Below are positions 3,047-36,501 of a stretch of DNA of 64,000 nucleotides, piece after piece. The stretch lies in IMG/VR virus record IMGVR_UViG_2509601026_000001, one strand, 5' to 3'. The notes under the pieces are model-generated. The model did not search any database. It was not told the DNA's origin and saw only the letters and a list, made by a program, of their open reading frames with translations. This DNA comes from a virus. The position numbers and the translations under genes are program-made. Numbering within the stretch: the stretch's first letter is position 1; every line of letters starts with the position of its first letter.

Positions 3047-4211
3047 GAATCTGTATCGGCATGACCAGATAGAGAAAGTTCTGTTCAGTCAAAAACTGAA
3101 AGATGACAGGAGATGTCGCCACATTGAGCTTGATAGTCACCTTTGGCGAGTTTGAAACTTTGAGCGGTTCAATGAGATAGTTCACATTGAAGCCCATTTT
3201 CTCTATGCCAATGTGGGAGCATGGCAGCCCGGTATCGGTAGATGCGCTGGCTACTTCAGCAGCTTCAGCTTTGATGATCAAAGTTTCGCCGGAGAAGTTG
3301 AACTCAACCACATCGTTTTTATGTGCGGCAATGAGCTTGGCATACTCAAGAGCTTCCAAAAGTTTTTGTCGATCAAACTCAAGTTCATAGGCAAACTTCT
3401 TTGGAACAAGTTGGGGATAGTTAGGGTACTGCCCTTCTAGCACCCGAGACGTTAGCGTAGTTTTTAGATCTGGAAGTTTGAATGTGACGTAGGAAGAGTG
3501 CTCGGCCCATTCAATCTGGGTTGTCTCAGAACCTTGAGCAACCTGCTTGAAAGTGGTCAGGAACTTATACGGAATAGTCATCGGCCAGGTTAAATGTTCC
3601 CTGACTTCCTCATCAAAAGTGACTACAGAAAGACGATGCCCATCGGTTGCAGCCATCTCCTTGTTTAGATGAACTCCAGTCAAGACTTGTTTGGATTCAT
3701 CCCTGCTAGAAAACGGATTGACCCGATCAAGAATCGCAATAAAATCCTTGGTCGGCAAGGCGATAAATTGATCGGATTCAATAGCTGGAATATAGGGATA
3801 ATCCTCGGGGTCCAGGCCTCGGGTAGAGCCTTGCTGATTTGTACCCTTAATTGTTACCTCATGGTTTTCAACTTTGAGGGTCACAACTGAGTCCTTGAGC
3901 TGATTAAGGATATCAATCGCCAGAACAGGAATGGTAAATTTGCAAGGAGCCGTGGAGCTAATGACAGTGGTTTCGATCGCAATTGACGATATTTCGTTGC
4001 TTGCAAAAATGGAGCAACATGTATCCTCAATCGTTATGACAATTTCGTGCATTACCGGGCGGGAAGACTTCTTATCAATGAAGTGCTTGGCCCTGGTAAG
4101 AACGTCGAGAAAGTCAGCGCGAACAATTTCAATGTAGATCCCTGGATCAAGATCCAGGGATTCTGATGGAGACTCTAGAACAGCGGTCGTGGCTTTTTTA
4201 GGCATTACCAA
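3039..4211 (-). CDS. dnaN: DNA polymerase III beta sliding clamp
   Basis: 390 aa; SRDESKQVLTGVH, AATDGHRL, LEGQYPNY, GFNVNYL, YLVMPIQIR, cyanobacterial-type DnaN motifs. Confidence 0.93.
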   Translation of the reverse strand: MVMPKKATTAVLESPSESLDLDPGIYIEIVRADFLDVLTRAKHFIDKKSSRPVMHEIVITIEDTCCSIFASNEISSIAIETTVISSTAPCKFTIPVLAIDILNQLKDSVVTLKVENHEVTIKGTNQQGSTRGLDPEDYPYIPAIESDQFIALPTKDFIAILDRVNPFSSRDESKQVLTGVHLNKEMAATDGHRLSVVTFDEEVREHLTWPMTIPYKFLTTFKQVAQGSETTQIEWAEHSSYVTFKLPDLKTTLTSRVLEGQYPNYPQLVPKKFAYELEFDRQKLLEALEYAKLIAAHKNDVVEFNFSGETLIIKAEAAEVASASTDTGLPCSHIGIEKMGFNVNYLIEPLKVSNSPKVTIKLNVATSPVIFQFLTEQNFLYLVMPIQIRE

Positions 4212-5986: not shown

Positions 5987-6203
5987 TTTGATTGAGCAGC
6001 TGTTGGCTCAGCTCGGGCATGATGTCCTGCATCTGAACGGCATAGGCATTGAGGGCCAGCCGACTTTGGTGGCCATGCTCTGCATGTGCGTCATAGCGAA
6101 GAACAAAATATCTGGCCCGTGGGTCCAGGGGAGTTCCATCAGCTTTGCTCAGCAGGTATTTGCCGTAGAGTCCAACAAGGCTTGGTGCTTCTTCAGGCGA
6201 CAT
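5913..6203 (-). CDS. hypothetical phage protein
   Basis: YFVLRYD motif; tight packing. Confidence 0.65.
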   Translation of the reverse strand: MSPEEAPSLVGLYGKYLLSKADGTPLDPRARYFVLRYDAHAEHGHQSRLALNAYAVQMQDIMPELSQQLLNQIVDEAEESYRLNHPDNSTPGDNHE

Positions 6204-11941: not shown

Positions 11942-11993
11942 AGTTTCACGAGTGATCTAGGGTTTACAAATTGAAAACTCTGGGTGGAAATAA

Positions 11994-12020
11994 CTACCCT
12001 GCCCCGGAGGGGCAAGGTAG
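11994..12020. repeat. C-GGA-G hairpin element (outlying copy)
   Basis: ctaccctgcccc-gga-ggggcaaggtag. Confidence 0.85.
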
Positions 12021-12047
12021 AAAATACTGTTGCTGTAAAAAGGAAAA

Positions 12048-19034: not shown

Positions 19035-19110
19035 AGGTTTGCTCGGGTAGGGTTCAGTTGTAATTTTACAGGATTCTAGCTCTAGGGTCTTAGACTATAG
19101 AACTAGAGAC

Positions 19111-19152
19111 TGATCGCAAAAAAAACCCCAAGCCCCGGAGGGGCAAGGGGTT
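19111..19152. repeat. C-GGA-G hairpin element with partial HIP1
   Basis: tgatcgc-aaaaaaaa-ccccaagcccc-gga-ggggcaagggg. Confidence 0.85.
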
Positions 19153-19180
19153 CGAGGTTTTAGGCAACGATGCGTGGATT

Positions 19181-24070: not shown

Positions 24071-24178
24071 AGTGATTAGCCTCTAGGTAAATGAGTAAGT
24101 TGACAGTTGGTTAAAAACCCCCTGGTCCCCGGAGGGGCCAGAGGGATACAATTGAGGTTGGCAGGAGTAAAATCTGGC

Positions 24179-24439
24179 CTAGGTAGATGCACCTTCAGCC
24201 GGGGTTTCAACAATCTCAAGATCAAAGTCGTGAGAGTAGTTGAAGCCTCGGTTTTCTAAGTTTTGAGCAAAGACGGCGCAGAAAAAGGCATCTTCAAAAT
24301 ATGAAGATGTCCAGCTACCAGAGCCAGCTGCCGTTTCGTGGTAAACCACGTAGGGTAGATCTGCGGTGGGTTCGGTATAGGCCTGGTAATCTTCTTCGGC
24401 AGTTAATAGATAGTCGGCAATTTGGCAAGAAGCAGGCAT
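24179..24439 (-). CDS. hypothetical protein
   Basis: single ORF between two hairpin elements. Confidence 0.6.
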   Translation of the reverse strand: MPASCQIADYLLTAEEDYQAYTEPTADLPYVVYHETAAGSGSWTSSYFEDAFFCAVFAQNLENRGFNYSHDFDLEIVETPAEGAST

Positions 24440-24557
24440 GGGTCATACTCCTTCAGAGAAAGTGGACTCAGCAGTTTTTTTGCTGGACTTACTTAGGTCC
24501 AGGTACTAAAAAACCCCCTGGTCCCCGGAGGGGCCAGAGGGTCTGTCGATGCGATCG

Positions 24558-25010
24558 CTAAGCAACCTGCTGGGCAGATTGCTCGTAGTGTTGTTCAAGG
24601 GTGGTGGCCCACCATTCTTCAACGGCTTGCACTACCTCTTGGTCGTACCCCTCGGGGAGGGTGTAGCCGAGGTGGCGCAGCAGGGACGGGATGTACTCAG
24701 GCATGATGCGACGGTTGCGCTCAGCCGGGTCATAGCCCAGCCGCAGGTCACGGACAGAGAACCGGACGATGCCATTCTTGTCGGCGCTAGCCTGGGCGGT
24801 GATGATCACTTGTCGGCCTACGGTCAGGTAGGGAACTAGACCTACCGGATAGTTCCAATAGCTGAAATTGAAATACTCGGTTTTGGCCTCGCCTGCCTGG
24901 TTGATGCGATCGCAAGCGACTCGCAGGACCAGCAGCGGAATGATAGAACCACGGACGACACGAGAGGTTTGAGTAGGTTCAACTACAACGTTTCCAACGA
25001 AAGTATCCAT
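24558..25010 (-). CDS. SSB-like OB-fold protein
   Basis: TFVGNVVVEP...LRVACDR...KTEYFNFSYWN...LVPYLTVGRQVII. Confidence 0.65.
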   Translation of the reverse strand: MDTFVGNVVVEPTQTSRVVRGSIIPLLVLRVACDRINQAGEAKTEYFNFSYWNYPVGLVPYLTVGRQVIITAQASADKNGIVRFSVRDLRLGYDPAERNRRIMPEYIPSLLRHLGYTLPEGYDQEVVQAVEEWWATTLEQHYEQSAQQVA

Positions 25011-25094
25011 AGGAATGCCTCAGAAGGTTCGATCGCCAAAAAACCCCCCTGTCCCCGGAGGGGCAGAGGGGCAAGGTTTGCGGTGGAGAGATGG

Positions 25095-25676
25095 TTACTT
25101 AGGTTGCCAAATTCCTATCATCCAGCGATCGTTAGCAACAGCTATTGATCGGTGAAGATGTTTGCAATCAAACTGAATAAGTTCGCCACCAGTCAGTATG
25201 AGTTGATCATAAAGAGCTGGCGGTGAATCTGAGTTTCGTTTGACAGCAATCTGGAATGTAGCAGAGCCTAAGTTGAGGATATGAGCTGTTTTGTGGGCGT
25301 AACTAGCGTCACGATGCCAGTTAATTCCTGTGCCTTTAGCGACAAGAGCGCATGAAGCACTAGGAACTAGCTGCTTAATGAAAGGCCAGAGTCGTTCATC
25401 ATGGATAGCTGGCCGGTATTGGACAGGTGAACCGTTGCGTCCACTTCTTAGGTCAGGTTCTTGATGAAGCCAATAGCGCAGTCTGCCTGGGGCGTAGTTG
25501 GAAATGTCTTCTTTAAGATGATCAGATTGGGTTTCAAGATGATGAATGATTTCAAGAATCTTTGGAGTTGGGAATGTGTAAAGTATTTCAGCGATCATGG
25601 AATATTCCATATCAATAAAGATTGCAAGCAATTCCGTAGAGAGGGTCTGTCTTCCATTTTTGAAGGAGACGATCAA
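25095..25676 (-). CDS. 2OG-Fe(II) dioxygenase, AlkB-like
   Basis: WHRD (HxD), LNLGSATF, distal HLHRS and DRW. Confidence 0.75.
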   Translation of the reverse strand: MIVSFKNGRQTLSTELLAIFIDMEYSMIAEILYTFPTPKILEIIHHLETQSDHLKEDISNYAPGRLRYWLHQEPDLRSGRNGSPVQYRPAIHDERLWPFIKQLVPSASCALVAKGTGINWHRDASYAHKTAHILNLGSATFQIAVKRNSDSPPALYDQLILTGGELIQFDCKHLHRSIAVANDRWMIGIWQPK

Positions 25677-25857
25677 AGTTTTCGGAGCTGACTATACGAC
25701 AGTCAACACCACCGGATTTGAAATGCCAAAAGAGAGAATAACGGGGTGGCACATCAAACCCGATGCAGGCAAATACATTTGAGTCGTCAATACTTCGCAT
25801 GGATAACAACCCTCTCGACCGGAGGGAGAAAAGAGGGTAAAACTGTGCGATCGAAAG

Positions 25858-26067
25858 TTAGTCTTCTTCTTCTTCAATAGGATTGTAGTCTTCGCAGTCA
25901 GAAGTTTGAGCATCACAAAGAACTCGGTAAAGAACTAAGTCCATAGGCCTTGTTTTGGGAGCACCAAAGATGCCCCAGTCTTTTGCGCATTGAGCAACTT
26001 CGTCAAAGGTGATGCCACCACCTGTTGAATCAGATTCCCAGCGGCTCTTAAACTCTTCTTTGGTCAT
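25858..26067 (-). CDS. hypothetical protein
   Basis: GITFDEVAQCAKDWG. Confidence 0.6.
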   Translation of the reverse strand: MTKEEFKSRWESDSTGGGITFDEVAQCAKDWGIFGAPKTRPMDLVLYRVLCDAQTSDCEDYNPIEEEED

Positions 26068-26069
26068 AG

Positions 26070-26297
26070 TTAGCCTACAAGTTTTGGTTGTTCGATGTAT
26101 TCTTTCTCGCCAGCGGGAAAGTATTGAGAGCTAAATTGTGCCTGAGAATAGACCATTGAATAATCATTAGGCCAATTTTGCTCAGCCCATTTCTGGGCAA
26201 AGTCTACATCATCGGTATTCAATCGAATCCAATGATTTCGCCATTCGCTACGCTGGCGAAAAGTAATGTAAGTTCCGGGTAAAACGGGGCTAGACAT
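26070..26297 (-). CDS. hypothetical protein
   Basis: YITFRQ...YSMVY. Confidence 0.6.
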   Translation of the reverse strand: MSSPVLPGTYITFRQRSEWRNHWIRLNTDDVDFAQKWAEQNWPNDYSMVYSQAQFSSQYFPAGEKEYIEQPKLVG

Positions 26298-26368
26298 CAG
26301 TGAATCTTTCCTTTTGGGGTAAGTTGGATGGGTTGAATTTCGCCGCTATAACCAATTATCCCATAGAG

Positions 26369-26755
26369 TTAATGTGTAGCCAAGTCGGCAAACTTGACGG
26401 AGTGAAAAGGGTATTTCTCGCCTGGGCGATCGTCAAAGTTCCAGCATTCACAGTAGGTATCAGCGTGGGCCGATAGGTAGCCCTCAATGAATGGCTGCTT
26501 GAAAACGTGCTCACTTATAGAAATGGCTGGGCCAGTCAAAAAATGTTGATAGCCTAACCGCCAACCAATACACTCAGAGGTTCCTTGAGTGTAAGGATTT
26601 CTGGTCTGTTCGCAGTCAAGGTAGATGTGAGTGCAAGCATGATGCCATGCCTCGCCCCAGGTGGCTTCTGCACCATAGGCACACAGAAGCTCGCCACGTT
26701 CTGAATGCCACTTGTAAGAGCCATCAGAGAGTTTTTCGATAGAGATTTCTAGCAT
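26369..26755 (-). CDS. hypothetical protein
   Basis: ORF after hairpin at 26800. Confidence 0.6.
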   Translation of the reverse strand: MLEISIEKLSDGSYKWHSERGELLCAYGAEATWGEAWHHACTHIYLDCEQTRNPYTQGTSECIGWRLGYQHFLTGPAISISEHVFKQPFIEGYLSAHADTYCECWNFDDRPGEKYPFHSVKFADLATH

Positions 26756-26818
26756 GAGTAATAAAGGTAAACATGGTTATCAGAAAATCTCCTGCCCCCG
26801 GAGGGGCAGGGAGGAGTA

Positions 26819-27235
26819 TTAACGAGCAGCAGCTAGTTCACGCTCAAGCTGGTCCCAGTTGACAGGGCCTAGCTCGAAATCAGATTCATCGGCAAAAGCT
26901 GGGGGTAGCTCGGCGGGGATATACTGCTTGCGCTTTGTGTAGTTATCCCAGGCTATGTAGGCACCGAGGCCAAAGGCTCCGACCAAGCAGACACCCAGGG
27001 TGATCGGATTGGTGACAACTTCCATGATGGTTGCTCCAGTCTCAGCTAAGAGCGAACCAGCCTCAGCCGTAAGCGAAGTGCCTTCAGCAATATCGGCAGT
27101 CGTAGAAACAGCATCGACGGTAGTAGAAACAGCGTCGGCAGCAGTAGCAGTAGCCTCCATTGCATCGGCGGCGATCGCAGTAGCTTCAGCGGCCTCAGCA
27201 GCAGTCATTACGTCAGCATAGTGAGATGCAATCAT
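26819..27235 (-). CDS. Ala/Thr-rich membrane protein
   Basis: start reassigned to attgccATG at 27235; one TM helix (ITLGVCLVGAFGLGAYIAW). Confidence 0.6.
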   Translation of the reverse strand: MIASHYADVMTAAEAAEATAIAADAMEATATAADAVSTTVDAVSTTADIAEGTSLTAEAGSLLAETGATIMEVVTNPITLGVCLVGAFGLGAYIAWDNYTKRKQYIPAELPPAFADESDFELGPVNWDQLERELAAAR

Positions 27236-27331
27236 GGCAATAAATAGGTAGAAGAACAGGCACAAAAAACCCCCTCCCTACGGAGTAGGGAAGGGGCGTT
27301 TAGCATTGAATTGGTGATATGGCCCATCTTA

Positions 27332-27631
27332 TCAGATAGGCATTTCACCTAGCCATTGATACACCTGGGCATCACAAAAGCCGCAGGGTATCCAGATGGG
27401 AGGATCAAGAGGTTTGATAAGACCGTCTTCGAGCAAAGCCCGGTCGAGGGCCTGGTTTTCGGACCAGTTCTTGATTAGAACGCAGCCACTTGGAAGTAGC
27501 TGCTTGGTATTGACCGTGGCGACGGCATAAGGCTCAAAGCCTAACAGAAGATGGATGCAAATATTTCGAGGATTTGCATACCACAGTGGTTTGATAGCCA
27601 ATTGTTTGCCGTGCCAAAGGATAGTTGTCAT
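27332..27631 (-). CDS. hypothetical protein, DUF4313-like
   Basis: EPYAVATVN...IKNWSEN...GFC. Confidence 0.5.
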   Translation of the reverse strand: MTTILWHGKQLAIKPLWYANPRNICIHLLLGFEPYAVATVNTKQLLPSGCVLIKNWSENQALDRALLEDGLIKPLDPPIWIPCGFCDAQVYQWLGEMPI

Positions 27632-27724
27632 AAGCGTTCACAGATAATAGGTCAGTCTTAAACCGGGAAAAAGAGTATCCAATCCCCGGCTTTTCGCTAG
27701 GGATTGGGTGAGTAGTGGTCTATG

Positions 27725-28246
27725 TCAATTTGAGGGAGTTGCGAGATTGGATAGAGCTTCGTATAGCTCGGCCTTGGACATGCGGCTATAGCGGGGTAGC
27801 TCGATGCGCTTTGCGATCGCCCGCAGTTGGTTGCGGGACATTTGAGCAGTGACCATAGGAACAGGCTCAGCCTCGGCCTCGGCCCGGTCAGGTTCGGCCT
27901 CTACCACGGCGGTTGAAGCAACCTCGATGGTGGTAACAGAAGCCTCAGCAGGGGCCTCGGTAGCAGGCATGAGCAGAGCAATAGGACTAGCAGCAGGCAT
28001 GAGCTGGGCCGGGGGCTTGGCGACGGCAGGCAGTGCAGAGACAACCTGCAAGTCAATCCAGAGCTTGACCAGGATAAAGACGGTCGCCACGATGGCGTAA
28101 ACCACGGCGAAGGAGAACCGGGCCAGCCATGCAATCAACTGGGCGGCGGCGATCGCCTTCGGAGAGGCCCAGCGATATGCAGCGTAGAGAGTCGAAGCGA
28201 TTTGAAGGGTGTTGTCGGTAGAGTTGATCAGGGTAGCGTAAGTCAT
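27725..28246 (-). CDS. membrane protein with C-terminal Rho-N (HeH-like) domain
   Basis: TM segment, then MSRNQLRAIAKRIELPRYSRMSKAELYEAL; start reassigned to MTYAT. Confidence 0.65.
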   Translation of the reverse strand: MTYATLINSTDNTLQIASTLYAAYRWASPKAIAAAQLIAWLARFSFAVVYAIVATVFILVKLWIDLQVVSALPAVAKPPAQLMPAASPIALLMPATEAPAEASVTTIEVASTAVVEAEPDRAEAEAEPVPMVTAQMSRNQLRAIAKRIELPRYSRMSKAELYEALSNLATPSN

Positions 28247-28383
28247 TTGAAGTTTCCTTTGCCCGTGTAGAGAGTGGGCACTAATGGTGAATAGATGCCG
28301 TGAAGAGATTGGCATCTTGATCCACAGAATAACCCCCAAGCCTCGGAGAGGCAAGGGGGTCAATTTTGGATTTTAGAAATAGC

Positions 28384-28830
28384 CTATGGATAGTTGAGCA
28401 GGTTGTTTGCAGTAGCGTAATACCACGAACTGGCAACAACCTCACCATGGCAATTGAACGGATAGTCAGCTTCGTCAAGAATACCGTGGACGCAGAAATT
28501 TTCCTTGTAGCAAAAACAGCCTAATTGGCTGTCTGTGTCCAGCGATCGAAGCTCATCAAGCACAGCTTGACGAGTCGGAAAGTGAAAGTTTGCAACGGTA
28601 GAAGCGTTGAGTTCAGCCTTCAGGTATTCGGCGGCAGCTTGGGGCTGCATCCGGTCCTTCAAAACAAGTTTTATGTAGGCCCTGAACAGCTTCACGCATT
28701 GTTTGCGGTCGGCAACAGTTCTGCCAACCGGGAATGGATTGGCCAGGGCTGATTGGGCCTTGCCCTTGCCGCCGCGCCCAATGTAATGGGCCAGTGGAGT
28801 TGAGCCAATGGTAGTAATAATCATGGGCAT
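28384..28830 (-). CDS. DUF4326 domain protein
   Basis: YIGRG...ALANPF...LGCFC...HGEV. Confidence 0.75.
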   Translation of the reverse strand: MPMIITTIGSTPLAHYIGRGGKGKAQSALANPFPVGRTVADRKQCVKLFRAYIKLVLKDRMQPQAAAEYLKAELNASTVANFHFPTRQAVLDELRSLDTDSQLGCFCYKENFCVHGILDEADYPFNCHGEVVASSWYYATANNLLNYP

Positions 28831-28900
28831 TAGAGATGAATTGCGATCGCAGATAGAACCCTCATCCCCTCGGAGAGGGGAGAGGGTAGTTAGTCAAAGT

Positions 28901-29095
28901 TTAGAACCAGATGGTGCTAAATTCTCCTGCGTAATAAGTGCCAAGATAACGACGGCGGGGACCAGTCAAGATGTTGATAAGATCGTCTTTGTCAGGCTCA
29001 AGCCAGATGTCTCGATAGCCACGCTGAAGCAGTTGATCGATCACCTGGGAGATTGAGCCTTGTATGTCAAAGTCATGGGTAAAGTCAGGTTTCAT
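28901..29095 (-). CDS. hypothetical protein
   Basis: single ORF between hairpins. Confidence 0.65.
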   Translation of the reverse strand: MKPDFTHDFDIQGSISQVIDQLLQRGYRDIWLEPDKDDLINILTGPRRRYLGTYYAGEFSTIWF

Positions 29096-29166
29096 AGGTG
29101 ATAGAAATGAGATGAGCGATCGCTAAAAAACCCCCTGGACCCCGGAGGGGCCAGAGGGTAAATGGA

Positions 29167-29595
29167 TTAAGCGGCGTTGCGAATGATGGCGGACAGTTGA
29201 GATCTGATGTCTTTTTCAGGGGTGATATGAATAACGCCCCAGAGGTCCAGGCCAAGCCGTTTATAGGCAGTCGCAAGCTGAGCTTGCTTCCTGGCCTTGG
29301 CGGCTAAAGCTCGGTCGTTAAGAGTAATGTCAAGGCCGATTACATGGCCTAGATAGAGGATCACTGCATCTAGCCCAAAGACTAGATCCAAATATTCTGT
29401 TGGCGGAATTTCTAGCTCACCAAAGATTTGATTGAGGTGAAATTCAGCCGCTTCAATGCGGGCAGAAGGAATGCAGTCGGCAGCGACATTTTGTAAGATG
29501 GCCAGGTCAAAGTAGATTGGCTTAGCTCTAAGAGCCTTGAGTTCAGACATAGTGTTTTGCTCTGCGGTCAGAGCAGCAAGAGAGCCGTAGGTCAT
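29167..29595 (-). CDS. hypothetical protein
   Basis: single ORF between hairpins. Confidence 0.65.
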   Translation of the reverse strand: MTYGSLAALTAEQNTMSELKALRAKPIYFDLAILQNVAADCIPSARIEAAEFHLNQIFGELEIPPTEYLDLVFGLDAVILYLGHVIGLDITLNDRALAAKARKQAQLATAYKRLGLDLWGVIHITPEKDIRSQLSAIIRNAA

Positions 29596-29682
29596 AGTAG
29601 GTTATGGCGATTGCTTGAAATGAGCGATCGCCAAAAGAACCCCCCTAGCCCCGGAGGGGTAGGAGGGTCATTGGTTTAGGGA

Positions 29683-30183
29683 TTAGACAATTTGCCCACG
29701 GATACCAGCGGCCTTAGCGGCCTGGACCCGACCGGCAGCAATAGAAACGCTAGCCTTCAGGTCAAACTGGGCAGGAGCAACTGAGATAGTTGCAGAAAGT
29801 TCGTGGTCAAAGATAACTTGCAAAAGACGAACAGCCGCACCCTCTACATCAGTAGTAGGGCAGACCACAACAATCTCGTCGCCGGAATACCAGCGAAACA
29901 AGGAGTTTGAGCCACGAGAAGAACGAAAGCAGGCAAGGGCAGAACGAATGCGATCGTCTACAGCTTCGTAGCCCAACTCGTCGTTGAGCTGGTGGATGTG
30001 GTCAAGGTCAAAAAAGATGACGGAGTAGCGACCGTGACGCAACCTGGCCCAGAGTAATTCAAGCCTCTGGCGAGTGCCGACCCCATAGGCCGGGCAGGTG
30101 GTCAGGACATCTACTACCTTACGGTGGTAGATGTAGAAGGAGATAAAGCCAGCAATATAAGCAATGATGGCAACAAGAATCAT
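29683..30183 (-). CDS. membrane-anchored GGDEF-domain protein
   Basis: N-terminal TM helix; IFFDLDHIHQLNDELGYEAVD; RWYSGDEIVV. Confidence 0.8.
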   Translation of the reverse strand: MILVAIIAYIAGFISFYIYHRKVVDVLTTCPAYGVGTRQRLELLWARLRHGRYSVIFFDLDHIHQLNDELGYEAVDDRIRSALACFRSSRGSNSLFRWYSGDEIVVVCPTTDVEGAAVRLLQVIFDHELSATISVAPAQFDLKASVSIAAGRVQAAKAAGIRGQIV

Positions 30184-30264
30184 GGCAATTAAGTAGGCAG
30201 TGCGATCGCCAAAAAGCCCCCACCCCATAGGGGCAGGGGCAGACTCAAGGAGAGGGATTAGGCG

Positions 30265-30585
30265 TTAGTTGTCCAATGCACACTTGGACTGTTCAGCCCA
30301 GTTCTTAGCTTTGGCAATGCATGTTTCGTAGTCAGTGGCCTTGAGGTAGCTGTGGTCGATGGTCGTATCAGCGCCAGGGTCAACGGGGTTGACAATAGGC
30401 TGGTCAACCGCATTGTTGTCCAATGCACACTTGGACTGTTCAGCCCAGGTCTTGGCATTGGCGATGCAGGTTTCGTAGGGAGTAGCAGCAACAACGGGAT
30501 GGACGGGAGCCGCAACAGCCACGACAGCAGCAACGATAGGAGCGGCAGCAGTGATGATTTGAACAGCGATGGAGATGGATTTCAT
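30265..30585 (-). CDS. secreted protein with duplicated Cys motif
   Basis: signal peptide; YETCIA.AK.WAEQSKCALDN occurs twice. Confidence 0.7.
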   Translation of the reverse strand: MKSISIAVQIITAAAPIVAAVVAVAAPVHPVVAATPYETCIANAKTWAEQSKCALDNNAVDQPIVNPVDPGADTTIDHSYLKATDYETCIAKAKNWAEQSKCALDN

Positions 30586-30701
30586 AGTTGATAAGTCCTT
30601 GTAGGTTAGGTGTGTTATTCGCAACAAGTGAAGGTTGCGATCGCCAAAAGAACCCCCTGGTCCCCGGAGGGGCCAGAGGGTAAAGGTCTAGTCGGAGTCA
30701 G

Positions 30702-30920
30702 TTAGTTCGAGTAGGCGGCGCAAACCTCGGCAGCCAGCGCTAATAGCTCGGCTACCTCGGGGTCAGCCTCATGGCCAGGGTTGATGACCGTGGCTTCTCC
30801 GCAGAGAACAACCGCTTCGCTATAACCAGGCAGGGCAACGATGCCCTTGCCGGAAGCATGAGAGGCAGCGGCGCACAGGAAGATAAACAGAGGGACAATA
30901 AAGGCGATAATGAGTTTCAT
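30702..30920 (-). CDS. small secreted protein
   Basis: signal peptide MKLIIAFIVPLFIFLCAAASHA. Confidence 0.65.
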   Translation of the reverse strand: MKLIIAFIVPLFIFLCAAASHASGKGIVALPGYSEAVVLCGEATVINPGHEADPEVAELLALAAEVCAAYSN

Positions 30921-30994
30921 GGCAATTGCAAGTAGAGATTGCGATCGCCAAAAGAACCCTCACCGTCCCCGGAGGGGCGGGAGGGTCATAGGGC

Positions 30995-31084
30995 TTAGTC
31001 GGTAGTGAATCGGTAAACGATGCCGAGCATGGCACCGCCGACAGTCAGGGAATAGAGAACAGCCAGTAGGCACTGAGTAATCAT
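30995..31084 (-). CDS. 29-aa hydrophobic peptide (not in ORF track)
   Basis: MITQCLLAVLYSLTVGGAMLGIVYRFTTD; attgccATG start; exactly fills the space between two hairpins. Confidence 0.6.
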   Translation of the reverse strand: MITQCLLAVLYSLTVGGAMLGIVYRFTTD

Positions 31085-31160
31085 GGCAATGAGAGATATA
31101 GATTGCGATCGCCAAAAGAACCCTCATCCCCTCGGAGAGGGGAGAGGGTAAGGCGAGTCG

Positions 31161-31334
31161 CTAGAAGGCGATAAGGTCATAGTCGGATGGAACAGGCCGA
31201 ACGATAGGCTGGCGCATAGAGACTTGAACCTCGGCACCATCGGCCATAGCGGCCAGTGCAACCTGACGGTTGGTGGTGCAGTAGGTTTCAAAGCAACCAG
31301 TCGATTCGGCGTGGATAACGTGATAGTCGAACAT
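31161..31334 (-). CDS. hypothetical protein, first gene of early array
   Basis: start reassigned to MFDYHVIH, ~30 bp after hairpin at 31382. Confidence 0.6.
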   Translation of the reverse strand: MFDYHVIHAESTGCFETYCTTNRQVALAAMADGAEVQVSMRQPIVRPVPSDYDLIAF

Positions 31335-31477
31335 GATAGATAGAGGATGACAACACCCAGTGAAGAACCCTCGTCGTCCCCGGAGGGGCGAGAGGGATAG
31401 GGATAGTGCGATCGGCAGTGGGCCAGCGTAGCCAGCCATGCGATCGTATAGCGTCCCCAGAGGGGAATCGCTAGGGG

Positions 31478-31672
31478 TCAGCCCCGGCCCCCAGTCTTGG
31501 GGTCAGGTCAACCCCCAGCCCCTACCAGGGGAGAGACTACCCCCACCCCTAGCAAGGGGCCTCGCACCCTAGCCCTGGTCCCAGGGAACTGGTCAGCCCC
31601 AGCCCCACTCATGGGACTCCACCCCCCCGGCCCCCTCAAGGGGAGCCACTACCCCTAGCCCCTAGCAAGGGG
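31478..31672. repeat. seven degenerate tandem units, 27-29 bp period
   Basis: units end at 31502, 31531, 31559, 31586, 31615, 31643, 31672; each C-run, 1-3 nt, CCCC-loop-GGG(G). Confidence 0.85.
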
Positions 31673-31847
31673 AACGGTACTCTGCTGTGGGTCTACCATG
31701 CGATCGGAACGCTCACACCGCAGCCCGGTCGGCCTGCGTCAGACAGAGGTTAGCGGCCTGGTCCATGCGGCGATCGCCACCTGGCCAGCGATGACCCGTC
31801 GCAGTCTCCCTATGCTCGACATGCGATCGCTAACCCGTGGGCATCGG

Positions 31848-31925
31848 GGATCATAAAAAAATACCCCTTTTTGCCCACGGCAAGAGATATCGAGATCCCT
31901 TCTCTCCTCTCACCCCCAAATTGCC
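31848..31925. repeat. 78-bp perfect inverted repeat, left copy
   Basis: exact reverse complement of 36424-36501 on base-by-base comparison. Confidence 0.95.
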
Positions 31926-32183
31926 ATTTCGTTTTGACAGTTTTAACTAGAAAACCGAAAAGAGGGAATAGGTGAAGAGGAGAATGGGAAAAGATTGTAA
32001 TCTACTGAAAAAATTAGATTAACAAACAGAAATGCCGCCGACCTACAGGGAGAAAGATCGACGGCATTCTGTGAGTTGAGGGCCGGAGTTGCCTTTCCAA
32101 AGGCATTGTCTCTCCGGTTGAGACGATTATAACTTCAAGATGGGAAAAGCATCAACAGGTTTCAGGAATTTTTCAGGACATTG

Positions 32184-35100
32184 TTAGGAGTAAAACTGAA
32201 TTTCCTCGTTGACTTTCTTTCCACGCCTTGCAATTTCTTGAAGTGCAGCATTGTCTCCAACAGCTTGCGCCTGACGATAAGCATTTCTGAGGCCTTCGAG
32301 CTGGCCTTGGAGTCGGCCAACATGTTCAGAACGAAACTGTGGATTATGGTTTAGCTCTCGGCTTTTAAGAGTTGTGCCCTGATTGAGCATGATGGCTCGT
32401 TGTCTAGGGTCTTGAGGCAGCTGTTTAACTCCGGGCGGCAAGTAGGAGACGGAATAGACACCGTTACCAGTGGCTTCAGGGAACGGATTAGCAGGCTGGG
32501 CCTGGGTACGCTGAACGACCGGGCCGGACGGACCACCCTGCGGGATGATCATAGAGCCAACCTGCCGTCTGGCCTGGGCCACTTCATCAGCGATCGCCTG
32601 GTTTCGGACGATCTGAGCATTAGAGTCCTGCGCCCATTGCCGCTGAGCGGGGCTGAGGGCCGACCCAGAGGCCGGAGTAACGACCCTGGGGACCGGAATA
32701 TTAGCCGTAGGCACCCCGGCCATGTTGGTCGCCTGAGCATTGAGGTTTGCAATCAGGCTTTGCCCGCCCATTCCGCGGACTCCCCCTACAATTTCCTCTC
32801 TAGGAACTGGAGCTTGCCGAAAAACGGTAGGTGACTGGAGCACCTGAGAGGCGAGGGCCTGGATTTGGCCAGCCTGGGCAGAGCTTGCAGGGGCAACCTG
32901 GCGAGATGCCGCCATGTCACGGGCCATCTGGGCACGAACCTCTTGCAGTGTGATGCTGGGCTGCCCCAGCCAGTCGGCTTCTGCCTGAGATAAAGAGTCG
33001 AGCTGCCCGGTTTGGCGGTTAAACTGACGTCGAGCAGTGGGCAGACCACCCATCGCGTTTACTTCGGTCAGGTTCAGGGCATGTAGACCCCGCTGCCGCC
33101 GCTGAGCATTGAGCTGACCCAGCTCATCAAGAGGAACTTGGACAGCTGCATAGTCAGGAGAGGTGTTGACGTTCCAACCTTCGGCCCTGGCCTGCTCGAT
33201 TTCGGCACGGGCTGCGGCAAGTTTGTCTTCTGCGTTGGTGTGACGCAGTTCTCTGTACCGAGACGGGGCAGAGCCAGAGCCGACGCTGACAAAATCGTAG
33301 GGCTGGGCAGTCATGGCACCGCCACCAGCACCCTGCACAACCGTACCGGGGTTGATGATCTGCACATTGCCTCGGCTATCGGTCAGGTATTGAACCCCGG
33401 TCCTGACCTGATTGTGCTTAACGGTGGGGTCGACCTGGTGCAATGCCCTGAAGACTGGCTCAGTGCTGCGCCAAGCTGGACTATCGGGGGGGGCAGACAG
33501 TACGCCAGCATCTTCATCCATGTGCTTTGTGATGATGCTGGAGCTATCAGGAGAGCCATAGAGGCGATAGCCTTGCTTCTGCAACGCTTCGATCGGTACA
33601 TCCTGGCCATTAACCCGGACGGACCGGGCCGACGGGGCAGACTGGGGCAGGGACAATACCTGACGTACAGGATTCTGTTGGTTCCGTCGTAAGACCTCTT
33701 CGAGCGGCAGATCCTCGGTGACGACATTGGACCCCTGACGAGTCTTGGTCGTTAGGAAGTCGGGCATCTCACCCATTTCGTCAAAGGCTCTTTGAATGTT
33801 GCCCTGCAATGCCTGCTGGCTATTCATGAGCGAAATGACCCGCTCTTGGCCAACACGGGCCTGAATCTTCTTGGACATCAAATCGTCCAACTGGCCTTGC
33901 AGGTAGTCAACAGGTAGACCTTGCTGCTGCCGTTGCAGTGCAAGATTGCTGATCGCCTCATAGGCCGCATCGCCACCAGCTGCATCATATTGATCCAGTG
34001 CTCGGGTAACGTTGCCTTCTTCAAAGGCTAGTTTTTTGCGAATCAGGGCCGGGGCATCATAGAGGGCATCGCCGGGGAAGGTTGGATCGTCTGCGAAGTA
34101 GCGGGGGTTCTCCGAGCTGAACGGAGTCGGCAGCCGAGTAGGCTGGTCAGGCGAAGGCGCATCGATCGACATCCAAGCGGGCTTAGGCTCTAGCGAAGTA
34201 AATGGGCTGTAAATGTCTGAGCGAGTCGCAACATAAGCGTTCTGGTTCAGACCGTACTGGCCGGGACCACGAACGGCAGGCCTAACGCTGCCTCCGCTAC
34301 GCTGACCGTTGTCGAGAAAGCCAAGGCCGGGGATGACTCGGTTGCTTTCGTCAGTGGCAGTAAGGCTGTAGTTAGGTTGCCTTGAGCCGGAGATAAACCC
34401 ATACTCGGCCTCTCGGGCCTCGGGCACCACATAGGTCGTGTTCAGATTTAGGTCAGTGGTCACAGGCTGAGAGCTGGCAGCAATCCGAGCACGGGCAGCA
34501 GCGTCATTGCTGGCCAGCGCATCATCCCTGATGCTCCGTTGTAGGTGCATGTTGGCCAGGGATTCGGCCTGGGCCTGCTGGCCTCGGGCGGCGAGGAATG
34601 GGGTAGTCTCTGCCCCTCGGGTAAATGCAGCGTCGTAAGCGTTCCCGGTCAAAGAAAGGACCGGATTGCCGCTGGTCGGAGCCGGATAGCTGCGGCTGTC
34701 TAGATCGTCGCTGGTCTTGCCTGGTTGCCAGCCTGATACCCTATCTCGGGTATCGATCGCTTCTGAGTAGGTGCGAGGGACCAAGGTACGAGTCGCGGCG
34801 GAATGAATACCCTCATCCATGCCGACCAAGCGAGGAACTTCAGACGCATCTACGAGAGTTGACCCACCGGCACCCGTAAACACGTTGCCGTCCGGGTCGG
34901 TCCCCTGGTACATAAATCGGTTCGGCACATCCTGCACGGTTCCCGGATTTGTCCAGGCATAGGGGGAAGATGTGGGAAAGACCGGGTATTGTCTGCCGCT
35001 GGCAATGTTGCCGTAGACATCAGTAAGCGTTTGACTAACATCGACACCGGGGCTATAGCCGCCAGCGATCGCCTGCGGCCCGCCCATCTTGTCGATGAGG

Positions 35101-35678
35101 CCGGGGGCACCGGAGGCACCACCTAGATAGTCAGCAGCAGCACGACCAGCCAAACCTCCCTGGGTAAAGTCAACATTGGTCCGTGCCCCAGTTACCGAGT
35201 CAACGCCCAGGTTATAGGGCATGTTGTATTTGGCAGAGGTTGCAGCGCCTGGGTTGGCCCCAACAATGCGATCGTAGAGGCCTGGAAACTCTTTCTGAAA
35301 GCCGCCCGCTACAGGAGAACCATCGGGTGCAGTACTGCCCAGCGACCCCCAGGGCATCTCTGGACGGTAGACCGTTTCATCCGAGCCGGGAACGCTTAGC
35401 CGAGATGGATAAAGCTCTGTGGCATAGGAACCTTGACTCGGGTAGCTGGCCCTTGCCGCAGGGGCGGGGGAGCCGGTCGGCCCGTCATAGTCAGCCTGCA
35501 AGGAATTTAGAAAAGCATTCTCCTGGCTGGTGCGCTGCCTATAGGGCTTTGCTTCGATTCGCTGGACCCGTCCAACTCGGGCATCGCCAGCAGCAGCCAG
35601 TTTTTGAGCCAGTGACCCCGATTGACCGTCTAGAAAAGCGGTCAGGTTAGTAATTTTTTGAAGCGCCATGTTACCCAA
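32184..35678 (-). CDS. large low-complexity protein (1164 aa), possibly virion/ejection
   Basis: G/A/P/Q-rich, no recognisable enzymatic motif. Confidence 0.75.
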   Translation of the reverse strand: MGNMALQKITNLTAFLDGQSGSLAQKLAAAGDARVGRVQRIEAKPYRQRTSQENAFLNSLQADYDGPTGSPAPAARASYPSQGSYATELYPSRLSVPGSDETVYRPEMPWGSLGSTAPDGSPVAGGFQKEFPGLYDRIVGANPGAATSAKYNMPYNLGVDSVTGARTNVDFTQGGLAGRAAADYLGGASGAPGLIDKMGGPQAIAGGYSPGVDVSQTLTDVYGNIASGRQYPVFPTSSPYAWTNPGTVQDVPNRFMYQGTDPDGNVFTGAGGSTLVDASEVPRLVGMDEGIHSAATRTLVPRTYSEAIDTRDRVSGWQPGKTSDDLDSRSYPAPTSGNPVLSLTGNAYDAAFTRGAETTPFLAARGQQAQAESLANMHLQRSIRDDALASNDAAARARIAASSQPVTTDLNLNTTYVVPEAREAEYGFISGSRQPNYSLTATDESNRVIPGLGFLDNGQRSGGSVRPAVRGPGQYGLNQNAYVATRSDIYSPFTSLEPKPAWMSIDAPSPDQPTRLPTPFSSENPRYFADDPTFPGDALYDAPALIRKKLAFEEGNVTRALDQYDAAGGDAAYEAISNLALQRQQQGLPVDYLQGQLDDLMSKKIQARVGQERVISLMNSQQALQGNIQRAFDEMGEMPDFLTTKTRQGSNVVTEDLPLEEVLRRNQQNPVRQVLSLPQSAPSARSVRVNGQDVPIEALQKQGYRLYGSPDSSSIITKHMDEDAGVLSAPPDSPAWRSTEPVFRALHQVDPTVKHNQVRTGVQYLTDSRGNVQIINPGTVVQGAGGGAMTAQPYDFVSVGSGSAPSRYRELRHTNAEDKLAAARAEIEQARAEGWNVNTSPDYAAVQVPLDELGQLNAQRRQRGLHALNLTEVNAMGGLPTARRQFNRQTGQLDSLSQAEADWLGQPSITLQEVRAQMARDMAASRQVAPASSAQAGQIQALASQVLQSPTVFRQAPVPREEIVGGVRGMGGQSLIANLNAQATNMAGVPTANIPVPRVVTPASGSALSPAQRQWAQDSNAQIVRNQAIADEVAQARRQVGSMIIPQGGPSGPVVQRTQAQPANPFPEATGNGVYSVSYLPPGVKQLPQDPRQRAIMLNQGTTLKSRELNHNPQFRSEHVGRLQGQLEGLRNAYRQAQAVGDNAALQEIARRGKKVNEEIQFYS

Positions 35679-36423: not shown

Positions 36424-36501
36424 GGCAATTTGGGGGTGAGAGGAGAGAAGGGATCTCGATATCTCTTGCCGTGGGCAAAAAGGGGTATTTTTTTATGATC
36501 C
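36424..36501. repeat. 78-bp perfect inverted repeat, right copy
   Basis: reverse complement of 31848-31925; contains TATGAT at 36494-36499. Confidence 0.95.

Follow-up and report, generated by a model that had tools for sequence, protein, structure and literature searches.

Terminator-like hairpin modules between the small genes of an integrated cyanophage: sister phages suggest that they double as gene swap points

The hyperplastic regions of T4-type myoviruses contain promoter-early stem-loop (PeSL) cassettes (Arbiol et al. 2010, PMC2839356; Comeau et al. 2014, PMC4122927). In these phages, the PeSLs were shown to serve as portable homology through which cassettes are exchanged (PMC2839356; PMC4122927). 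Here we describe a family of hairpin modules between small genes of a cyanobacterial prophage. The stretch of DNA analyzed (the window; 64,000 nucleotides, IMG/VR record IMGVR_UViG_2509601026_000001) is part of a low-GC integrated cyanophage island of about 84 kb. A preliminary description had regarded the segment as an integron-like array that gains and loses genes at junctions between a hairpin and the octamer HIP1.

The island lies on a 793-kb replicon of a 6.89-Mb host genome, and the terminase, portal and capsid genes of the phage were found, together with exonuclease, Gam-like and SSB genes, the SSB-like genes being several. The nearest isolate is Synechococcus phage S-EIV1, a distant kin whose terminase is 40% identical. 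No close relative of the phage of the window was found in any collection searched, and the breakpoint evidence described below therefore comes from sister lineages.

The features of the array are listed in Table 1. Between 31.4 and 27.7 kb, exactly one ORF lies in every interval between modules, nine in all, as had been claimed; the start of the first gene, however, had to be corrected to 31334. The 29-aa ORF among the nine is still putative. The same rule had been proposed for most intervals from 24.1 kb onward. We found it to be less strict between 27.7 and 24.1 kb: a single interval contains three genes (26297-25095), and two hairpins (27679-27707 and 25810-25826) are of types other than the module family. 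In total, about 17 cassette genes stand in tandem between 24.1 and 31.4 kb, and GC3 jumps at the borders of modules in the window, with values from 0.37 to 0.64.

Table 1. Coordinates of the features in and around the hairpin array
Feature	Coordinates	Strand	Remarks
Promoter-like element at head of array	31849..31926	-	arm of perfect 78-bp inverted repeat
Non-coding leader	31470..31848	-	HIP1 at 31823 and 31770
Module u31376	31350..31405	-	without HIP1; covariance model 44 bits
Cassette gene, 57 aa	31161..31334	-	first gene of array; no family match
Module u31130	31102..31157	-	HIP1 at 31105, then ATTGCC-ATG
Putative cassette ORF, 29 aa	30995..31084	-	hydrophobic; open frame, common start context; no homologue found
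Module u30967	30938..30994	-	HIP1 at 30941, then ATTGCC-ATG
Cassette gene, 72 aa	30702..30920	-	N-terminus signal-peptide-like
Module u30666	30634..30689	-	HIP1 at 30637; covariance model 66 bits
Cassette gene, 106 aa	30265..30585	-	N-terminus hydrophobic; internal 72-nt duplication
Module u30228	30199..30250	-	3-nt UAU loop variant; HIP1 at 30202, then ATTGCC-ATG
Cassette gene, 166 aa	29683..30183	-	GGDEF domain, motif SGDEI; PF00990, E 2.9e-10
Module u29653	29621..29676	-	HIP1 at 29624
Cassette gene, 142 aa	29167..29595	-	no family match
Module u29144	29113..29167	-	HIP1 at 29116
Cassette gene, 64 aa	28901..29095	-	no family match
Module u28868	28840..28895	-	HIP1 at 28843
Cassette gene, 148 aa	28384..28830	-	DUF4326; PF14216, E 2.6e-9
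Module u28341	28314..28368	-	without HIP1
Membrane protein, 173 aa	27725..28246	-	C-terminal Rho_N (HeH) domain; PF07498
Terminator-like hairpin	27679..27707	-	different sequence type
Lower array part	24100..27305	-	genes 138, 128, 75, 69, 193, 150, 86 aa
Module u27283	27250-27305	-
Module u26800	26770-26823	-
Module u25057	25026-25080	-	partial HIP1
Module u24527	24496-24550	-
Module u24131	24100-24154	-
Outlying module u19133	19107..19160	-	partial HIP1; upstream of SSB gene
Outlying module u12007	11974..12029	-	downstream of exonuclease gene

The domain search confirmed the GGDEF and DUF4326 assignments of the cargo. The GGDEF cassette gene is only 27-35% identical to the GGDEF genes of the host, and no further DUF4326 copy was found in the host genome. 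The AlkB-like assignment of 25095-25676 was not significant: Pfam gave nothing, and BLASTP against the AlkB of a sister phage aligned the HxD motif at an E value of 0.34. At the head of the array, the promoter-like element contains a TGGGCA-16-TATGAT site (31877-31850), and the other arm of its inverted repeat (36424-36501) heads the virion operon; the element is kept on both sides in the sister phages B and C. The leader contains about 7-8 tandem CCCC-loop-GGGG units of about 28 nt each (31470-31680), and a HIP1 about 25 nt past the promoter-like element holds the same aligned position in our phage (lineage A) and in lineages B and C.

Each module is about 55 nt long and, read on the minus (coding) strand, consists of a GC stem of 11-13 bp, a UCCG loop and a T-tract. 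The hairpin begins about 5-30 nt past a stop codon. An nhmmer search located 16 copies between 12 and 31.4 kb of the window, every one of them on the minus strand and 14 within 24.1-31.4 kb, and none in the remainder of the 6.89-Mb genome. The copies have a single orientation relative to the genes, and neither flanking target duplications nor terminal repeats beyond the stem accompany them. Of the 21 genomic occurrences of the string CCCCTCCGGGG, 12 lie in the window, all on the minus strand. The copies scored 40-66 bits against a covariance model of which they were themselves the training set. Stem cells were paired at 93% and compensatory changes occurred in 9 of 11 pairs, which none of 500 shuffles matched, the alignment having been fitted to the model. 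The intergenic regions fold at -20 to -51 kcal/mol, T-tracts follow the hairpins on the coding strand only, and terminator-like sites numbered 46, compared with 16.4 +/- 4.3 in shuffles. Distant positions of the window bear identical hairpins of 28-30 nt. The hairpins of u30666, u24527 and u24131 are identical, and u31130 and u28868 share an identical 30-nt stretch. The stems are perfect, with neither extrahelical bases nor GTTRRRY cores, and no sigma-70-like promoter site was found within the modules of the window. The module family is thus real and non-random. In the public genomes and viral contigs scanned, the source strain's own runs aside, no second array was found, and only singleton matches at chance level appeared.

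HIP1 (GCGATCGC) occurs in 7 of the 16 modules, each time past the T-tract and toward the next ATG, from which a short leader separates it. The seven positions were exactly those previously given, and the two partial copies are real as well (GCGATCGA in unit 25057 and GCGATCAG in unit 19133). The offset of HIP1 is fixed in the seven modules, and the eight adjoining cargo genes contain no HIP1. The start context reported for four cassettes was also recovered: ATTGCCATG occurs five times in the window, always on the minus strand, and four of these are cassette starts. By chance 0.97 copies are expected, and one of 100 shuffles reached five.

We then compared the array with those of sister phages. 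Phage B (G036:C62), whose terminase is 73% identical, has at least seven near-identical UUCG-loop modules between small genes, and phage C, an 80.8-kb JGI contig, has eight. In the sister phages, the homologous modules lie at the syntenic place, past the FHA gene, the giant gene and the leader. The sister phages, lineage F included, share a grammar in which the hairpin is followed by TTCTTTT-GGC, and the longer tail TTCTTTT-GGC-ATTGTC is conserved in B, C, D and F. The small genes, on the other hand, are almost all different: of the cargo that lies between giant gene and Rho_N gene, lineage A shares no homologue with B or C, and B and C share a single one. The Rho_N gene, a conserved backbone gene with homologues in B, C and D, marks the end of the block that varies most in each lineage. 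Module similarity was 0.71-0.80 within a phage versus 0.57-0.67 between phages; this similarity within a phage could come from shared function rather than from gene conversion. None of the homologous modules of lineage B contains HIP1, although the bin of its host has 0.63 HIP1 per kb, and in lineage C HIP1 lies in a different sub-module, 14-30 nt from the hairpin. HIP1 is therefore not required, contrary to the role of obligatory junction part first given to it; we regard it as a passenger that the module carries in particular lineages, not as a crossover site for a dedicated recombinase.

Only lineages C and D were close enough for a comparison of breakpoints (82% nucleotide identity in the Rho_N-AlkB region), and two events, one replacement and one insertion, make up this evidence. 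In the replacement, one module is 93% identical and the genes flanking it on both sides are unrelated; homology sets in with the 5' edge of the hairpin and is lost gradually some 25 nt upstream of the ATG of the cargo gene. In the insertion, a gene of about 535 nt starts exactly past a hairpin T-tract, and an identical 34-nt hairpin lies 694 nt away. In this sister pair, both events thus have their breakpoints at module edges; it was on sister lineages that the breakpoint test of the preliminary description was run. Layout, turnover and these breakpoints favor a cassette array that gains and loses genes at the modules, although not at an obligatory hairpin-HIP1 junction.

We think that the modules are probably terminator or attenuator hairpins of a hyperplastic early region and also portable homology for cassette exchange, similar to PeSLs. 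The region is a hyperplastic segment of small ORFan genes heading the leftward operon of the prophage. Each small gene closes with one module made up of a strong GC hairpin with a UCCG tetraloop, a U-rich tract and, in about half of the copies, HIP1, after which a short leader with no Shine-Dalgarno sequence runs into the next ATG. At the RNA level, the module is most likely an intrinsic terminator or attenuator and a hairpin protecting the 3' end, and we infer that it terminates or attenuates transcription in vivo; for a transcript that begins at the promoter-like element (31.85-31.93 kb), the modules would set apart the expression of successive genes or make it graded. A row of fourteen efficient terminators would shut off the distal genes unless the terminators leak, antitermination operates or internal promoters exist. 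At the DNA level, 16 similar modules with up to 30 identical nt between unrelated genes probably constitute portable homology, at which homologous recombination could delete, insert or swap single-gene cassettes and leave the genes intact. The sister phages suggest that the modules double as gene swap points, much as PeSLs do in T4-type phages, and the position of the breakpoints is presumably due to recombination and not to selection alone.

Purifying selection after random indels would likewise leave breakpoints in intergenic DNA, and the modules might serve regulation only. They would then be terminators, attenuators or RNA-stabilizing (processing) hairpins of a polycistronic early transcript, similar to T7 RNase III sites; turnover would result from illegitimate recombination, selection would keep the breakpoints intergenic, and recognition of all modules by a single RNA polymerase or phage factor would explain their likeness. 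Every structural argument for action on the RNA counts equally here, and the tail conserved in B, C, D and F suggests sequence-specific recognition. In addition, no deletion or circle joints were found in the source-strain DNA contigs, which drop rare variants, and no indels among the population contigs of lineages C and D, which are 99.7-100% identical. This explanation does not lead us to expect, however, that a module amid unrelated genes is more conserved than the adjoining core genes, that hairpins at distant positions are identical, or that cargo turnover between lineages is nearly complete in exactly the segment of the hairpin array. Moreover, the stem interior varies freely with compensation and is therefore not read as sequence. 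We consider regulation alone rather unlikely, though by no means negligible.

The other explanations invoke DNA hairpins or mobility. In an integron-like system, the hairpins would fold as single-stranded DNA like attC, and an unrecognized recombinase would cut at or beside HIP1 and move gene circles. The layout of co-oriented promoterless cassettes that each carry a hairpin on the 3' side and follow a single upstream promoter-like element matches this idea, as do the fixed offset of HIP1 and the Chi-like stimulation of recombination by HIP1 reported in a preprint. We nevertheless think it very unlikely: the domain search found no Phage_integrase or Resolvase domain (tyrosine or serine recombinase) on the entire 793-kb replicon, the T-tract and strand bias indicate an RNA role, and the perfect stems, the absence of HIP1 from the modules of lineage B and its different place in lineage C do not fit. 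N4 promoter hairpins have short stems and 3-nt loops. If the hairpins of the array, which lie upstream of every small gene, were likewise extruded in supercoiled DNA with the aid of phage SSB paralogues, a phage RNA polymerase, encoded perhaps by the giant ORF beside the array, could start at them, and the several SSB-like genes of the island would find a use. The modules instead carry the terminator signature of 11-13 bp stems, tetraloops and a 3' T-tract directly past stop codons; the giant protein had no match in Pfam, PHROGs, PDB sequences or the Atlas, and a single-subunit RNA polymerase domain was not found in a search whose control was uninformative. This makes promoter hairpins extremely unlikely. 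Finally, short palindromic elements with near-identical copies might be MITE- or REP-like miniature repeats that have spread into intergenic regions of the phage, an idea to which we give practically no credence, given their confinement to the island, their uniform orientation, their clean flanks and the homologous modules at syntenic places in sister phages.

The array also recalls several other known arrangements. Like the early genes of T7, it would yield a polycistronic transcript with one hairpin per gene and stable 3' hairpins left; the RNase III sites of T7 are bulged substrates with no U-tracts, and we know of no link between them and gene turnover. Like morons, its small accessory genes of foreign composition lie between phage genes and end with an intrinsic terminator. 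The moron of lambdoid phages, a term linked to Juhala and Hendrix, is an isolated unit with its own promoter, whereas here the tandem cassettes share one module family and apparently one promoter. Among the start-associated sequences (SAS/ESAS) of Cluster K mycobacteriophages, reportedly described by Pope et al. in 2011, the SAS is a 13-nt motif that recurs at many genes across the genome and comes with no terminator hairpin; the likeness is a short conserved sequence directly upstream of start codons, here ATTGCC-ATG at four cassettes, at times paired with a second conserved intergenic motif.

With integrons, the array shares co-oriented, apparently promoterless single genes, an imperfectly conserved hairpin after each, one upstream promoter-like element and unrelated accessory cargo. 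It differs in that the island replicon has neither IntI nor any tyrosine recombinase, that R and L boxes, extrahelical bases and attI are absent, and that its hairpins, perfect GC stems closed by UNCG loops, carry T-tracts and are oriented with transcription. With PeSLs, it shares repeated intergenic regulatory modules of about 50-100 nt with a G/C-rich terminator stem-loop, crowded beside small ORFan genes of a hypervariable segment. In both, the modules bound replacements and indels between related phages, and homologous recombination between modules has been proposed. The phage here belongs to an unrelated lineage, distantly related to S-EIV1 and residing in a cyanobacterium; its modules combine a terminator with a translation start region and show no recognizable sigma-70 promoter, and about half bear the HIP1 octamer of the host. 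Mini-circles and terminator activity belong to the PeSL side of the comparison; our modules are predicted terminators. Because the replicon lacks a tyrosine or serine recombinase and the hairpins lack attC features, the array is not an integron; the module shuffling of T4-type phages, which the preliminary description had also named, and with it the homologous-recombination model of PeSLs, fits better.

Read along the minus strand from 31.4 to 27.7 kb, the intervals between cassette genes follow one order: a stop codon, about 5-30 nt, a hairpin stem, a T-tract, often GCGATCGC, then 14-60 nt and the ATG of the next gene. The stem of this intergenic module has 11-13 bp of GC and closes on a UCCG loop (3 nt long in one copy), and TTCTTTT or a run of T5-6 comes directly after it. 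The distance from HIP1, the cyanobacterial octamer, to the ATG is 14-25 nt in most module copies. When all HIP1 sites of the window were listed (32 sites, against a chance expectation of 0.8), the seven module positions named in the preliminary description proved exact. Its rule of one ORF per interval held in nine intervals and was looser below 27.7 kb. The ATTGCC-ATG start context common to four cassettes and the GGDEF and DUF4326 cargo genes were borne out, and the match behind its "AlkB-like" cargo was not significant. The observation itself, that is, about one small gene per hairpin unit, is confirmed.

In a hairpin scan of the window, strong hairpins with a T-rich tail numbered 15 on the minus strand and two on the plus strand, and a terminator scan gave 46 sites against 16.4 in shuffles. 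The module profile (nhmmer, E<1) had 16 matches, all on the minus strand and 14 of them inside the array, and none in the remaining 6.8 Mb of the genome; a covariance model recovered the same 16 copies. In the alignment, which is model-fitted, 93% of stem positions pair and nine of 11 pairs have changed on both sides; no shuffle or slid register approaches this pairing and covariation. The interior of the stem varies with compensation, and the loop and flanks are kept, with ACCCTC before and GAGGG-TTCTTTT-GGCGATCGC after. Identical hairpin stretches of 28-30 nt recur within the window at 24.1, 24.5 and 30.65 kb, and also at 28.87 and 31.13 kb (30 nt at 28859-28888 and 31121-31150). The two modules on either side of the 86-aa cassette, at 24100-24154 and 24496-24550, are 90% identical. 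Rfam has no family for the module. Three copies of CCCCTCCGGGGCCATGGGG (L006-L008), with spacings of 129 and 258 nt, lie outside the island, and the module profile does not recognise them.

A role at the RNA level is indicated by the orientation of the modules, by their place behind stop codons, and by their U-tract, UNCG loops and structural covariation; the modules may act there as an intrinsic terminator, attenuator or 3' stabiliser. The sequence features of an intrinsic (Rho-independent) terminator are present: a GC-rich stem-loop downstream of a stop codon with a U-tract directly after it on the transcribed strand. Cyanobacteria are not known to have Rho, so that intrinsic signals would be the expected form of termination.

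The island that encloses the window is a phage. It spans ~84 kb of low GC (~50%) with 0.5 HIP1 per kb, in a cyanobacterial genome of 6.89 Mb in two contigs with 58% GC and 1.19 HIP1 per kb. The scaffold is free of gaps around the island, and the contig depth there is the same as in the flank. Among isolated phages, Synechococcus phage S-EIV1 is the nearest, with a terminase identity of 40%; its small genes form a run with the same layout, but a comparable hairpin family was not found in it. The coordinates of the features are collected in the table.

Table. Location of the array, its surroundings and related features in sister phages (window positions unless a contig or locus is named)
Feature	Position	Strand
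Phage island	about C2:685.5-769 kb	
Window	G000:C2:695000-758999	
Range of the 16 module profile matches	12-31.4 kb (C2:707-726 kb)	minus
Module array	24.1-31.4 kb	minus
SSB, Gam-like, exonuclease, primase-like and methyltransferase genes	below 24 kb	minus
GGDEF cargo gene	29683-30183	
72-nt direct repeat in 106-aa cassette gene	30268-30339 and 30415-30486	
Tandem ~28-nt units in the array leader	31470-31680	minus
Leader HIP1, window	31823-31830	
Leader HIP1, lineage B (L019)	3562-3569	
Leader HIP1, lineage C (L062)	about 5987-5994	
78-bp promoter-like element	31849-31926	
Promoter-like site within it	31877-31850	
Giant gene	32184-35678	minus
Inverted copy of the 78-bp element	36424-36501	
Large terminase, portal and major capsid genes	from 36.6 kb	plus
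Copies of CCCCTCCGGGGCCATGGGG	G000:C2:73840-74237	
Tandem SSB paralogues, lineage C	L062 11511-12454	
Tandem SSB paralogues, lineage F	L073 2109-3059	
74-nt inverted repeats, lineage B	C62 3589-3662 and 9178-9251	
Match of L067 1-5368	C62 8956-3589	
Match of L067 5295-8161	C62 9178-12044	

A close relative of the window's phage was found in none of the collections searched. There was no relative among 50,697 phage records in the nucleotide search, and a DNA search of 60 related genomes returned the self match and chance matches only. The exact module pattern had no match in viral contigs, and a degenerate pattern gave 32 singletons across many phyla in 185,579 species genomes, none of which nhmmer placed in the family. 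Viral and metagenome contigs were also scanned with the terminase and a 466-aa protein, and no relative was confirmed. The sister-type module pattern retrieved only the known lineage C record from viral contigs and nothing from metagenome contigs. Distant relatives were located via conserved genes. Lineage B is a contig (G036:C62) from a genome of the same genus, and its identities to the window are 73% for the terminase, 59% for the portal, 54% for the 466-aa protein and 32-35% for the FHA protein. Lineage C is an 80.8-kb JGI contig with identical copies, and lineage D is 82% identical to it in nucleotides around the AlkB gene. Lineages E and F were likewise recovered, as was L067, a near-twin of B whose contig ends ahead of the array.

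The layout is common to all lineages. A divergent promoter-like element comes first, and after it the FHA gene and a giant ORF of 1164-1479 aa; a G-rich leader and the small genes come next, ahead of a Rho_N-domain gene and the replication genes. Lineage B has at least seven small genes with a near-identical UUCG-loop hairpin behind each, and the tail of this hairpin reads TTCTTTT-GGC-ATTGTCC. Lineage C has eight UUCG-type module hairpins, several of them extended by a HIP1-centred palindrome and a second hairpin with a T-tract; in some, a TATAAT-like hexamer follows the palindrome. Lineage F keeps the same module flanks around yet other stems. Mean similarity of modules within a phage is 0.71, 0.79 and 0.80, against 0.57-0.67 between phages. 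In lineages C and F, two tandem SSB paralogues are each followed by a module-type hairpin.

The giant protein of the window (1164 aa) has counterparts at the same position in all lineages with 25-36% identity, and searches of Pfam, PHROGs, PDB sequences and the Atlas gave no match for the ORF. The Rho_N gene encodes a membrane protein that has a HeH-type domain. Most of the window's cargo is without a family match, and at module borders the GC3 of one cassette shifts abruptly to that of the next, between 0.37 and 0.65. The GGDEF cargo protein has the motif SGDEI and an N-terminal hydrophobic segment, and is 27-35% identical to host GGDEF proteins. The direct repeat in the 106-aa cassette gene is 89% identical, so that a Cys-containing motif occurs twice.

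Of the eight window genes that lie between the giant gene and the Rho_N gene, none has a homologue in lineage B or C, and B and C have only one gene in common there. For breakpoints, the sole informative pair was C versus D, with two events. In the replacement, a module that is 93% identical in the two phages has unrelated genes on either side. Homology sets in ~10 nt ahead of the hairpin, immediately behind the upstream stop codon, and fades ~25 nt short of the cargo ATG; the 5' edge of the next hairpin is exactly where it returns. In the insertion, D has an extra gene of ~535 nt whose start abuts the T-tract of the hairpin behind AlkB, and a 34-nt identical hairpin lies 694 nt downstream. 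Breakpoints at hairpin modules had been predicted in the preliminary description, and both events, from sister lineages, fit. Selection against gene-disrupting indels would also favour intergenic junctions. Within lineages, the population contigs of C (L055-L059, L062-L066) and D (L069-L072) are 99.7-100% identical, and differences in gene content among them were gene-calling artefacts at contig ends. No module-to-module joint of a mini-circle or deletion was seen in three DNA runs of the source strain, whose contigs drop rare variants and break only at 30-nt repeats.

Apart from the modules, unrelated cassettes have no extended homology to one another, and the phage encodes recombination-type functions (SSB, a Gam-like protein and an exonuclease). 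We therefore consider homologous exchange between modules, in the style of the promoter-early stem-loop (PeSL) cassettes of T4-type phages, as the most economical account of what may drive cassette turnover. An integron-type mechanism, which the preliminary description had proposed, would need an IntI-type tyrosine recombinase and attC sites, and fails on both. All six genome matches to PF00589 (Phage_integrase) are on contig C1, so that C2 has none, and PF00239 (Resolvase) has none on C2, the whole 793-kb contig. Unlike attC sites, the window stems are near-perfect GC with a UCCG loop and TTCTTTT after the stem, and have no GTTRRRY. In layout, the window cassettes are all on the minus strand behind what appears to be one upstream promoter-like site, with no sigma-70-like site in the modules. 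The earlier interpretation is supported in part, for cassette turnover at hairpin modules; the integron-like mechanism and the necessity of HIP1 are unsupported. Spread of the MITE/REP kind is unlikely, because module copies are not dispersed through the host genome. Hairpin promoters of the N4 type are likewise unlikely. The giant ORF is without a detectable family, and PF00940 (single-subunit RNA polymerase) was not found, in a search for which control genomes were uninformative.

HIP1 is absent from the eight cargo genes between 31.33 and 28.38 kb and occurs seven times in the modules between them. Since the modules are homologous, these seven do not count as independent events. In the alignment, TTCTTTT-GGC-GATCGC of the window corresponds to TTCTTTT-GGC-ATTGTC of the sisters, and HIP1 in the window modules looks like a local variant spread among copies. 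None of the lineage B modules has HIP1, in a host bin with 0.63 HIP1 per kb to which the assignment of the contig is unproven; HIP1 is thus not required for the architecture. HIP1 is concentrated in the array modules of two lineages (A, the window's phage, and C/D) at different offsets within the module. A further HIP1, ~25 nt past the promoter-like element, aligns at one position across A, B and C, three lineages with only ~55% identity between their core proteins; it is absent at the late-operon copy of the element. A preprint describes a Chi-like, methylation-dependent stimulation of recombination by HIP1, and in a published analysis HIP1 was under selection, but no function was found at the level of genes. 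From this distribution and these two studies, a role of module HIP1 in recombination or methylation is therefore possible. The stronger claim, that HIP1 at cassette joints and in the leader is a methylation-dependent, Chi-like stimulator of homologous recombination that aims exchange at module borders, draws on the concentration in two lineages at different positions, the absence from cargo and the aligned leader site; we consider it improbable. If it were true, the array would be a natural assay for HIP1's long-unknown function. HIP1 in half of the modules and in the leader, with none in cargo, is a concrete setting to test for any effect of it on recombination or methylation-dependent regulation.

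The sole promoter-like element for the array is the 78-bp sequence upstream of it, an exact inverted copy of which heads the virion operon. None of the 13 promoter-like (sigma-70-like) sites between 17 and 33 kb lies inside a module, and promoters inside window modules were rejected for lack of space and of -10-like hexamers. A likeness of the G-run/T-run of the promoter-like element to the 3' half of the module was judged superficial. The two 78-bp copies form a perfect inverted repeat that brackets the FHA gene and the giant gene. The equivalent segment of lineage B lies between 74-nt inverted repeats and is inverted in its 95%-identical relative L067; this segment has therefore been flipped in nature. 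The array leader contains ~7-8 tandem units of ~28 nt, each a CCCC-loop-GGGG and then a second G-run, and related G-rich motifs occur in the leaders of B and C. With no promoters in the modules, the question arises how genes that lie behind 14 terminator-like hairpins come to be expressed. For genes behind a dozen hairpins, leaky attenuation, antitermination or RNA processing would all be possible.

Gene shuffling bounded by modules has so far been documented for T4-type myoviruses (PMC2839356, PMC4122927). The same logic in an unrelated, poorly known group of cyanophages, distant kin of S-EIV1, suggests that there may be a general phage "slot array" for trying small genes safely; the present array stands out for its regularity, with roughly one gene to each module. 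Like PeSL elements, the window modules are stable intergenic stem-loops of the terminator/attenuator type, a likeness of structure only. They are likewise concentrated in a hypervariable region next to ORFans, with cargo not shared with sister phages. The two breakpoint events at modules in the sister lineages C and D would also fit the PeSL pattern. In contrast to PeSL elements, the window modules have no strong sigma-70-like early promoter inside. The array is not a new recombination system, and we classify it as one of the PeSL kind, in a cyanophage lineage where this had not previously been described.
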